This document shows, piece by piece, positions 54,168 through 57,454 of a DNA stretch of 64,000 nt (the stretch's first letter is position 1; each line of letters begins with the position of its first letter). The position numbers were made by a program, and so were the translations under genes. The notes below the pieces were generated by a model. The model was given only the letters and a program-made list of their open reading frames with translations. It ran no database searches and was not told where the DNA came from. The stretch is taken from the NCBI RefSeq assembly GCF_058153355.1, contig NZ_CM177019.1. The stretch is one strand, 5' to 3'.

Positions 54168-55001
54168 ATGTATCAGGCTCAGTTTTCTCATAACCCACTG
54201 TATTGCGTAGATATTATCAAGACTTATAAACCTGATTTCACGCCACGAGTGGCCTTTATTTTAGGTTCCGGGCTGGGCGCGCTGGCCGATCAGATTGAGA
54301 ACGCGGTCGCAATTTCCTACGAAAAGCTGCCTGGGTTCCCGGTAAGTACCGTACACGGTCATGCGGGTGAGCTGGTGCTGGGTTATCTCCAGGGGGTGCC
54401 AGTGGCGTGCATGAAAGGTCGCGGACATTTCTACGAAGGTCGTGGGATGACCATCATGACGGATGCAATCCGTACCTTTAAGTTGCTGGGCTGCGAGTTG
54501 CTGTTCTGCACCAATGCGGCTGGCTCACTGCGTCCTGAAGTGGGGGCCGGCAGTCTGGTCGCATTGAAAGATCACATCAACACCATGCCGGGAACGCCGA
54601 TGGTGGGTCTTAATGATGAACGTTTTGGTGAGCGCTTCTTCTCGCTGGCGAATGCCTACGATGCGGAATACCGCGCACTGTTACAAAAAGTGGCGAAAGA
54701 AGAGGGGTTCCCTCTGACGGAGGGCGTGTTCGTCTCGTATCCGGGGCCGAATTTCGAGACTGCGGCGGAAATTCGCATGATGCAAATTATTGGTGGGGAT
54801 GTTGTTGGTATGTCTGTGGTGCCTGAGGTTATTTCAGCTCGCCATTGCGAACTTAAAGTCGTTGCGGTCTCTGCGATTACCAACATGGCGTAAGGTCTGA
54901 GTGACGTGAAGCTTTCTCATGCCCAAACGCTGGCAGCAGCGGAACTCTCAAAGCAAAACTTTATTAATCTTATTTGCGGCTTTCTGCGCAAAATTGCCTG
55001 A
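54168..55001 (+). pseudogene. xapA: xanthosine phosphorylase (PNP-II) interrupted by an in-frame TAA at 54891-54893
   Basis: Track ORF stops after 241 codons (...AITNMA*); the same frame continues after the stop as GLSDVKLSHAQTLAAAELSKQNFINLICGFLRKIA* to a second stop at 54999-55001; combined length 277 codons equals full-length XapA. Confidence 0.75.
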
Positions 55002-55061: not shown

Positions 55062-56318
55062 ATGAGCATCGCTTTGCGCTTAAAGGTAATGTCCTTTTTG
55101 CAATATTTTATCTGGGGGAGCTGGCTGGTTACCCTCGGTTCTTACATGATTAATACCCTTCATTTCACCGGCGCTAATGTTGGCATGGTTTACAGTTCCA
55201 AAGGGATCGCCGCGATTATTATGCCTGGTATAATGGGGATCATCGCAGACAAATGGCTGCGTGCAGAACGTGCATACATGCTGTGTCACCTGGTGTGTGC
55301 AGGCGTACTTTTTTATGCGGCATCCGTAACTGATCCGGATATGATGTTTTGGGTGATGTTAGTTAATGCGATGGCGTTTATGCCGACTATTGCGTTATCG
55401 AACAGCGTCTCTTATTCCTGTCTTGCCCAGGCAGGGCTTGACCCGGTGACCGCTTTCCCGCCCATTCGCGTTTTTGGTACGGTGGGGTTCATTGTCGCCA
55501 TGTGGGCAGTAAGCCTGCTGCATCTGGAATTGAGTAGTCTGCAACTGTATATCGCGTCCGGTGCGTCATTGCTGCTGTCGGCTTATGCGCTGACTTTGCC
55601 GAAGATTCCGGTTGCGGAGAAAAAAGCGACTACATCGCTTGCCAGCAAGCTGGGTCTGGATGCCTTCGTGCTGTTTAAAAATCCACGCATGGCTATCTTT
55701 TTCCTCTTCGCCATGATGCTGGGTGCGGTGCTGCAAATTACCAACGTTTTTGGCAACCCGTTCCTGCATGATTTCGCCCGTAATCCTGAGTTTGCTGATA
55801 GCTTCGTGGTGAAATATCCGTCCATTTTACTGTCAGTTTCACAGATGGCTGAAGTCGGTTTCATTCTGACGATACCGTTCTTTTTGAAGCGTTTCGGTAT
55901 TAAAACCGTCATGCTGATGAGTATGTTGGCGTGGACGCTGCGCTTTGGCTTCTTTGCCTATGGCGATCCATCACCAACCGGGTTTATTTTGCTGTTGCTG
56001 TCGATGATTGTTTACGGTTGTGCATTCGATTTCTTCAATATTTCTGGTTCGGTCTTTGTCGAACAGGAAGTTGATTCCAGCATTCGTGCCAGCGCCCAGG
56101 GCCTTTTTATGACGATGGTAAATGGCGTCGGCGCATGGGTTGGCTCGATTCTGAGCGGTATGGCAGTGGATTACTTCTCGGTGGATGGCGTAAAAGATTG
56201 GCATACCATTTGGCTGATGTTTGCAGGGTATGCTCTTTTCCTCGCAGTGATATTTTTCTTTGGGTTTAAATATAACCATGACCCTGAAAAGATAACGCAT
56301 CGTTCAGTTACACATTAA
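55062..56318 (+). CDS. xapB: xanthosine permease (MFS nucleoside:H+ symporter)
   Basis: 418-aa polytopic ORF; follows xapA. Confidence 0.92.
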   Translation: MSIALRLKVMSFLQYFIWGSWLVTLGSYMINTLHFTGANVGMVYSSKGIAAIIMPGIMGIIADKWLRAERAYMLCHLVCAGVLFYAASVTDPDMMFWVMLVNAMAFMPTIALSNSVSYSCLAQAGLDPVTAFPPIRVFGTVGFIVAMWAVSLLHLELSSLQLYIASGASLLLSAYALTLPKIPVAEKKATTSLASKLGLDAFVLFKNPRMAIFFLFAMMLGAVLQITNVFGNPFLHDFARNPEFADSFVVKYPSILLSVSQMAEVGFILTIPFFLKRFGIKTVMLMSMLAWTLRFGFFAYGDPSPTGFILLLLSMIVYGCAFDFFNISGSVFVEQEVDSSIRASAQGLFMTMVNGVGAWVGSILSGMAVDYFSVDGVKDWHTIWLMFAGYALFLAVIFFFGFKYNHDPEKITHRSVTH

Positions 56319-56370
56319 AAGGATTCGCAGCTCTGTTCCTTGGGGCTGCTTTTATGATAAAGGTTAATTA

Positions 56371-56529
56371 GTGAAAGATATTTTATTTTCTTCTGGCGTT
56401 GGTTTTGGCATTGGTGCTTTGTTTACAATCGTGCGATTACCTATTCCTGTTCCAAATGTATTGCCGGGTATATTATCCATCGTGTTTATGTATGTCGGAT
56501 ATCTGGTGGTGAAATACTTTATGCCATGA
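56371..56529 (+). CDS. possible small hydrophobic protein (52 codons, GTG start), not in the ORF track
   Basis: Own translation VKDILFSSGVGFGIGALFTIVRLPIPVPNVLPGILSIVFMYVGYLVVKYFMP*; single TM-like segment with small-xxx-small motifs; weak AAGG upstream. Confidence 0.3.
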   Translation: MKDILFSSGVGFGIGALFTIVRLPIPVPNVLPGILSIVFMYVGYLVVKYFMP

Positions 56530-56569
56530 TAATTTAATACGATGTATTTTTTATATGGAGCACTTAATT

Positions 56570-57454
56570 ATGGAGCGCGCATATAGAACAGATCTTAAGT
56601 TGCTCCGTTATTTTCTTGCCGTAGCGGAAGAGTTGCATTTTGGTCGCGCAGCAGCGCGTTTAAATATGTCTCAGCCTCCGCTCAGTATTCATATTAAAGA
56701 GCTGGAAAATCAACTCGGCACGCAGCTTTTTATTCGCCATTCGCGCAGCGTCGTACTGACACACGCGGGCAAAATCTTGATGGAAGAATCGCGTCGATTG
56801 CTGGTGAATGCAAATAATATATTGGCTCGGGTTGAACAAATAGGTCGGGGAGAAGCAGGGCGGATTGAACTCGGGGTTGTGGGAACGGCAATGTGGGGAC
56901 GGATGCGCCCGGTTATGCGGCGATTCCTTAGAGAAAATCCTAACGTTGAAGTTCTGTTTCGCGAAAAGATGCCCGCGATGCAAATGGCCTTGCTGGAACG
57001 CCGCGAACTTGATGCCGGGATCTGGCGAATGGCGACAGAACCACCGACTGGTTTTACCAGCTTACGGTTGCATGAATCGGCGTTTCTGGTGGCGATGCCT
57101 GAAGAGCATCATCTCTCATCATTTTCCACCGTCCCGCTGGAAGCGCTACGTGACGAGTATTTCGTTACAATGCCGCCCGTGTACACTGACTGGGATTTTT
57201 TGCAGCGAGTTTGCCAGCAGGTGGGATTTTCACCGGTTGTTATTCGCGAAGTTAATGAACCGCAAACGGTACTCGCCATGGTCAGTATGGGTATTGGTAT
57301 CACATTGATAGCGGACAGCTACGCGCAGATGAACTGGCCCGGTGTCATATTCCGTCCGCTCAAAGAACGCATCCCGGCAGACTTATATATTGTTTATGAA
57401 ACGCAGCAGGTGACGCCCGCGCTGGTTAAACTGCTGGCGGCGTTGGCGCAGTAG
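56570..57454 (+). CDS. xapR: LysR-family activator of xapAB
   Basis: MERAYRTDLKLLRYFLAVAEELHFGRAAARLNMSQPPLS...; 294 aa from internal Met. Confidence 0.9.
   Translation: MERAYRTDLKLLRYFLAVAEELHFGRAAARLNMSQPPLSIHIKELENQLGTQLFIRHSRSVVLTHAGKILMEESRRLLVNANNILARVEQIGRGEAGRIELGVVGTAMWGRMRPVMRRFLRENPNVEVLFREKMPAMQMALLERRELDAGIWRMATEPPTGFTSLRLHESAFLVAMPEEHHLSSFSTVPLEALRDEYFVTMPPVYTDWDFLQRVCQQVGFSPVVIREVNEPQTVLAMVSMGIGITLIADSYAQMNWPGVIFRPLKERIPADLYIVYETQQVTPALVKLLAALAQ

Follow-up and report, generated by a model that had tools for sequence, protein, structure and literature searches.

The xap locus of Escherichia coli comprises, between the permease gene xapB and the regulator gene xapR, a small gene termed xapX, which is almost beyond doubt a real protein-coding gene. 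The window, i.e., the whole stretch of 64,000 nucleotides that was analysed (NCBI RefSeq assembly GCF_058153355.1, contig NZ_CM177019.1), carries this gene on the plus strand at positions 56371-56529, where it starts with GTG and runs through 52 sense codons to a TGA stop. Taken as a whole, the observations are best explained by a real xapX gene that would be expressed through transcriptional read-through, and whose product would form a membrane hairpin and act together with XapB; we propose this composite reading with modest confidence.

The three established genes of the locus also lie on the plus strand of the window. xapA codes for xanthosine phosphorylase and is the first gene of the operon (54168-55001), xapB codes for a xanthosine/H+ symporter (55062-56318), which is located immediately 5' of xapX and is its proposed functional partner, and xapR codes for a LysR-type activator (56570-57454). 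Between the xapB stop and the xapR start there is a gap of 251 nt, of which the xapX ORF takes up 159 nt (63%), leaving 40 nt from its stop to the beginning of xapR. The first-pass annotation had pointed to a hydrophobic 52-codon frame with a GTG start at this place, and its coordinates, strand, start codon and peptide are all confirmed; the gap, which it had called otherwise unexplained, is for the most part accounted for by the gene. An in-frame TAA at 56365-56367, read from the sequence two codons 5' of the GTG, leaves no possibility of an earlier start. The length of the xapX ORF alone is no proof of coding, since the same 4.5 kb harbour more than 12 ORFs of at least 52 aa in non-gene frames, some of them 109 and 147 aa long. 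What raises xapX above chance is its conservation, along with its match to a curated family model.

Conservation of the frame was assessed in ten orthologues from about eight genera, comprising two E. coli alleles and sequences from Escherichia sp., Pseudocitrobacter, Entomohabitans, Phytobacter, Chimaeribacter (two), Citrobacter and Pragia. Stops or frameshifts in relatives, which had been proposed as a check of the frame, do not occur: each of the ten orthologues comprises exactly 52 codons, and the start, either GTG or ATG, occupies the same site in all of them. Pairwise dN/dS values lie between 0.05 and 0.12 with a median of 0.075, the synonymous sites being saturated between genera, and variable alignment columns are found at 20, 10 and 45 of 51 first, second and third codon positions, respectively. 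The spacers that flank xapX cannot be aligned between genera, in contrast to the constant 52-codon frame. This codon-position pattern, combined with a frame conserved between diverged spacers, cannot stem from a signal in the DNA itself, for instance a promoter, and the protein encoded by xapX is subject to strong purifying selection. A comparison of the window allele with that of E. coli MG1655 shows 7 differences in 159 bases, each of which is synonymous. Covering at least 80% of its length, the ORF is present in 4065 of 5426 complete E. coli genomes, and gene callers also predict it in Salmonella and Enterobacter assemblies.

The xapX peptide matches the NCBIfam model TIGR03510 ("XapX domain") with 64.2 bits at a cut-off of 27.8 (E = 5.8e-18), the alignment spanning residues 4-50 of XapX and positions 2-48 of the 49 model positions. 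E. coli XapX and the TIGR03510 family are the same thing, with no difference at the sequence level, and the position between xapB and xapR is the site from which the family takes its name. The evidence for the gene had initially been rated as weak; the family match and the strong conservation speak against that assessment. Moreover, PGAP calls a CDS with identical boundaries, designated "DUF1427 family protein" in all full-length RefSeq E. coli records sampled (e.g., WP_000651752.1). The reference record of strain MG1655 (NC_000913.3), on the other hand, lists no gene between xapR (b2405) and xapB (b2406), which is a gap in the K-12 annotation. The earlier description of the frame as unannotated holds for this K-12 record but not elsewhere, where PGAP calls the same CDS and TIGR03510 names XapX. 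Databases already list xapX, under a name that derives from this very locus, and the gene itself is no discovery. In a literature search no paper was found that mentions XapX or TIGR03510, and the single paper found on DUF1427 notes species distribution only. For two Ribo-seq studies of E. coli (the Stringer 2021 preprint and a 2023 acid-stress study), which used cells without xanthosine induction, the supplements contain neither xapB or xapR nor the MG1655 coordinates or the peptide.

The product name used in RefSeq overstates membership of the Pfam family DUF1427 (PF07235), to which the relationship is at most distant. Scanning E. coli XapX against Pfam yields zero matches even at E ≤ 1, and the XapX-domain relatives tested reach 13-26 bits with the DUF1427 model, below its gathering score of 27.1. 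With 84 positions this model is longer than the 52-residue XapX, and distant XapX-domain proteins align to approximately its first 50 positions.

XapX is predicted to be a two-helix membrane hairpin with a proline-rich turn. AlphaFold2, provided with a 56-sequence family alignment, models helices at residues 2-20 and 31-50 (mean pLDDT 93.4) and a non-helical segment at residues 21-30. The hydropathy profile likewise comprises two hydrophobic peaks, with a dip at R22 and the following proline-rich stretch. This stretch, LPIPVPNVLPG (codons 23-33; 56437-56469, plus strand), forms the loop or turn that splits the hydrophobic sequence and contains prolines 24, 26, 28 and 32; its LP-x-P-x-P turn is the most conserved motif throughout the family. 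The first-pass annotation had envisaged a single-pass protein, whereas the model and the hydropathy profile give two helices separated by four prolines; its broader proposal of a plausible gene for a small hydrophobic membrane protein is supported. Its description of glycine-zipper-like spacing is also fair, as helix 1 contains two interleaved GxxxG pairs formed by G9, G11, G13 and G15. In the family alignment (A3, 56 sequences), conservation is at least 90% at G11, G15, L23, P24, P26 and P28 and complete at G43. The few charged residues (K2, D3, R22 and K48) do not settle the topology. Foldseek found no match to the XapX model in the PDB, and a sequence profile search of the PDB returned only coat proteins of filamentous phages at E ~0.4, a resemblance that we reject as an artefact of hydrophobic helices.

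Translation of xapX is preceded by a Shine-Dalgarno-like AAGG (56360-56363, plus strand), located 7 nt 5' of the GTG and predicted to form an anti-SD duplex of -3.4 kcal/mol. The motif had been characterized as poor, and it is indeed weak, yet it is present and has an equivalent in every orthologue: a purine-rich SD-like motif lies 6-9 nt before the start in all ten, and the duplex energies extend from the -3.4 kcal/mol of E. coli to the -12.3 kcal/mol of the AAGGAGG in Chimaeribacter arupi. A five-codon mini-ORF (ATG ATA AAG GTT AAT TAG; 56354-56371) ends in a stop that overlaps the xapX start (TAGTG), and the same arrangement is found in Pseudocitrobacter (L006) and Phytobacter (L008). The overlap could serve translational coupling, or it could merely be sequence common to close relatives.

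Directly 3' of the xapB stop, a terminator scan and folding identified a nine-pair RNA hairpin followed by UUUU (56327-56353, plus strand). The K-12 and window stems differ at four positions, all of which keep the pairing, and a hairpin of unrelated sequence is found at the same place in nine of the ten orthologues. With a fold z-score of -0.5, the 65-nt spacer is unremarkable. We infer that this structure may act as a partial terminator or attenuator between xapB and xapX, or as a 3' hairpin that stabilizes the mRNA. The hairpin and its U-tract could also constitute a full terminator, in which case xapX would need another promoter; no promoter-like site was detected when the xapB-xapR spacer was scanned for sigma-70 promoters.

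The gene order of the locus is strongly conserved in Enterobacterales. In every enterobacterial locus examined, xapA (PNP_UDP_1), xapB (Nuc_H_symport) and xapX lie upstream of a XapR orthologue (64-98% identity), and the order xapA-xapB-xapX-xapR recurs in Salmonella and Enterobacter assemblies. The distance from xapB to xapX amounts to 34-107 nt in all Enterobacterales loci examined, which represent three families. Pragia fontium harbours a gene for a DeoC-family aldolase between xapX and xapR (L012:5180-5950), yielding the order xapA-xapB-xapX-deoC-xapR; this insertion sets xapX apart from the regulator and puts it among the catabolic genes, and we regard xapX as one of the structural genes of the xanthosine cluster. 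Of 5426 complete E. coli genomes, 4087 carry xapB, 4077 carry xapX and 4113 carry xapR, and about a quarter of the genomes are without a detectable copy of each. In E. coli RM14721 (L003), an IS1 element has eliminated xapA, xapB and xapX together with the 5' end of xapR. Furthermore, the N- or C-terminal part of some "XapX" variants in the database (P0019, P0021, P0024, P0028, P0034 and P0038) consists of unrelated sequence; we read these variants as probable fusions resulting from insertions or deletions.

On these grounds we propose that most xapX transcripts originate at the xapAB promoter, which xanthosine induces, and arise from polymerases that read through the RNA hairpin behind xapB. 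Read-through would keep the output of XapX lower than that of XapA and XapB, and translation would initiate at the GTG codon behind its weak SD. The membrane hairpin would sit in the inner membrane, perhaps self-associating via its glycine face, and would act with the XapB permease by affecting its stability, assembly or activity. If the gene is real, a role of XapX tied to XapB or to xanthosine uptake seems moderately probable. We infer the link between XapX and XapB from gene order, and solely from gene order within the Enterobacterales.

Several small membrane proteins of E. coli bind and modulate large transporters, as exemplified by the pairs AcrZ-AcrB, MgtS-MgtA, KdpF-KdpABC and SgrT-PtsG. 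Like XapX, proteins of this type are hydrophobic, comprise about 50 residues and are encoded beside a transporter gene or co-regulated with it. AcrZ, MgtS and KdpF form a single helix each, whereas two are predicted for XapX, and no sequence relationship of XapX to AcrZ, MgtS, KdpF or SgrT was found. With regard to co-occurrence with a transporter gene, xapB precedes xapX in each of the ten orthologous loci as well as in the assemblies of Salmonella and Enterobacter, an arrangement that distant family members do not share. By analogy, proteins of this type provide a working model for how XapX might act.

The strongest alternative holds that xapX is real but independent of XapB, a generic two-helix module that is attached to many operons; we consider this possible, though rather doubtful. 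Such a protein might be a small homo-oligomeric pore, a membrane organiser or an aid to solute passage, and its location in the xap locus would reflect co-regulation or history, not physical partnership. The wider family provides most of the arguments for this reading. Among 1.84 billion representative proteins, a profile search retrieved 75 at E ≤ 0.001, which mostly comprise 50-90 residues and have the motif in common; TIGR03510 is matched by each of the 56 family members aligned in A3. Distant XapX-domain genes are found 3' of an FMN reductase gene, 3' of a PEP-hydrolase/UPF0261 operon, 3' of DUF1934, adjoining a CsoR-like repressor gene and rlmH, or overlapping a phosphoribosyltransferase-like gene. 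Tandem pairs of XapX-domain genes also occur (L013:4688-5138 and L014:73-438), and in a Syntrophorhabdaceae MAG such a pair is positioned between two acetamidase/formamidase (FmdA_AmdA) genes. A census of gene contexts across the family yielded no common partner gene.

Freshwater metagenome contigs contain one XapX-domain subfamily in abundance, and at least 347 of its stretches were confirmed (L026-L105, e.g., L034:4001-4153; L019:3065-3220). The scan of metagenomes used a narrower alignment and recovered only this phage-like subfamily, the genes of which are always located inside a phage-like replication/recombination module, not in a lysis cassette. Genes of the module code for a DNA polymerase, a MazG-like pyrophosphatase, UvsX/RecA, a Holliday-junction resolvase and a Cas4-like nuclease. 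A PHROG search found no family that matches the subfamily.

Given that distant members are encoded beside unrelated genes, the XapX domain is a general small membrane module that is not specific to nucleoside permeases, the permease link being confined to Enterobacterales. The unrelated operons and phage-like contexts of distant relatives weaken the proposal of XapX as a partner of XapB. An independent function fits the distant members beside unrelated soluble enzymes and within phage-like replication modules, as well as the tandem pairs adjoining formamidases. It is likewise consistent with the interleaved GxxxG pairs and the very short loop, which are typical of self-associating helices. Against it stand the invariable position of xapX 34-107 nt after xapB across three enterobacterial families, the nearly equal numbers of complete E. 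coli genomes with xapB and xapX (4087 vs 4077), and the finding that XapX matches neither holins nor channels nor any other functional family.

Class II holins and pinholins resemble XapX in that they are small, contain two helices and feature GxxxG-type (glycine-zipper) faces, and phage-like contigs frequently harbour the XapX-like subfamily. Holins, however, are encoded in lysis cassettes, while E. coli xapX lies in a catabolic operon and the copies in phage-like contigs belong to replication/recombination modules. Holin identity was rejected: the best model score amounts to 15.4 bits, reached by one relative, at a cut-off of 28.4 bits, and no Pfam or PHROG holin is matched above threshold.

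According to a further reading, which we judge very improbable, the xapX ORF is a translated leader (uORF) that controls xapR and yields a functionless peptide. Leader peptides usually keep their position rather than their sequence. The XapX peptide, however, is under strong purifying selection (median dN/dS 0.075) and is a member of a widespread family of proteins, deoC separates xapX from xapR in Pragia, and LysR genes are not found downstream of the distant homologues. The ORF is close to xapR and has a hairpin upstream, as a leader might, and xapR is reported to show constitutive expression of its own (PMC7205307). Furthermore, in vitro gSELEX revealed a binding peak of RNA polymerase-sigma54 in the xapB-xapR spacer (PMC8743547); yet no sigma54 consensus with up to 3 mismatches is found within 56319-56569, and such matches are fewer than expected by chance across the whole window. 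The least credible reading takes xapX for a chance ORF in a non-coding spacer, conserved through DNA signals such as the xapR promoter: the frequency of frames of this length in the region, the GTG start with its weak SD, the missing entry of the MG1655 curators and the two Ribo-seq supplements from uninduced cells would agree with it, but it conflicts with variation in 45 of 51 third as opposed to 10 of 51 second codon positions, with seven of seven synonymous differences between E. coli alleles, with an exact length of 52 codons in about eight genera despite wholly diverged flanking spacers, and with homologues both among the 1.84 billion proteins (75 representatives, E ≤ 0.001) and in genome assemblies of Syntrophorhabdaceae and Candidimonas. 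Accounts of xapX as a xapR leader or as a chance ORF are therefore both poorly supported.

Returning to the proposed partnership of XapX with XapB, a more far-reaching version would make XapX the founder of a new class of two-helix micro-subunits for membrane transport or for nucleoside/nucleotide metabolism. The protein would be a dedicated partner of XapB in E. coli, and the phage-like subfamily would do something comparable during infection; we regard this extension as speculative and, as it stands, unlikely. To our knowledge, a small-protein subunit has not been described for any nucleoside permease of the MFS type.

Should XapX act in the proposed manner, the xanthosine system of the textbooks, with its three genes xapA, xapB and xapR, would in reality comprise four. 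Neither the deletions described as ΔxapAB or ΔxapABR nor quantitative models of the xap switch (e.g., PMC7205307) consider a fourth gene between xapB and xapR. More generally, the reference annotation of E. coli K-12, taken as ground truth in many studies, lacks a conserved gene. The XapX family is named in databases only, and its relatives are widespread in bacteria and phage-like contigs; if the proposal is true, an inducible, non-essential K-12 operon would offer a tractable entry to this family.

Upstream of xapX, the xapA gene of the window contains an in-frame TAA at codon 242 (GCG TAA GGT; 54891-54893), where the other strains compared encode glutamate. Either the xanthosine phosphorylase of this strain would be truncated, or the TAA would be a sequencing error. 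A 61-nt probe placed over the TAA has no exact match in the 5426 complete E. coli genomes; its best match, found for instance in Nissle 1917 and ATCC 11775, differs by one mismatch.
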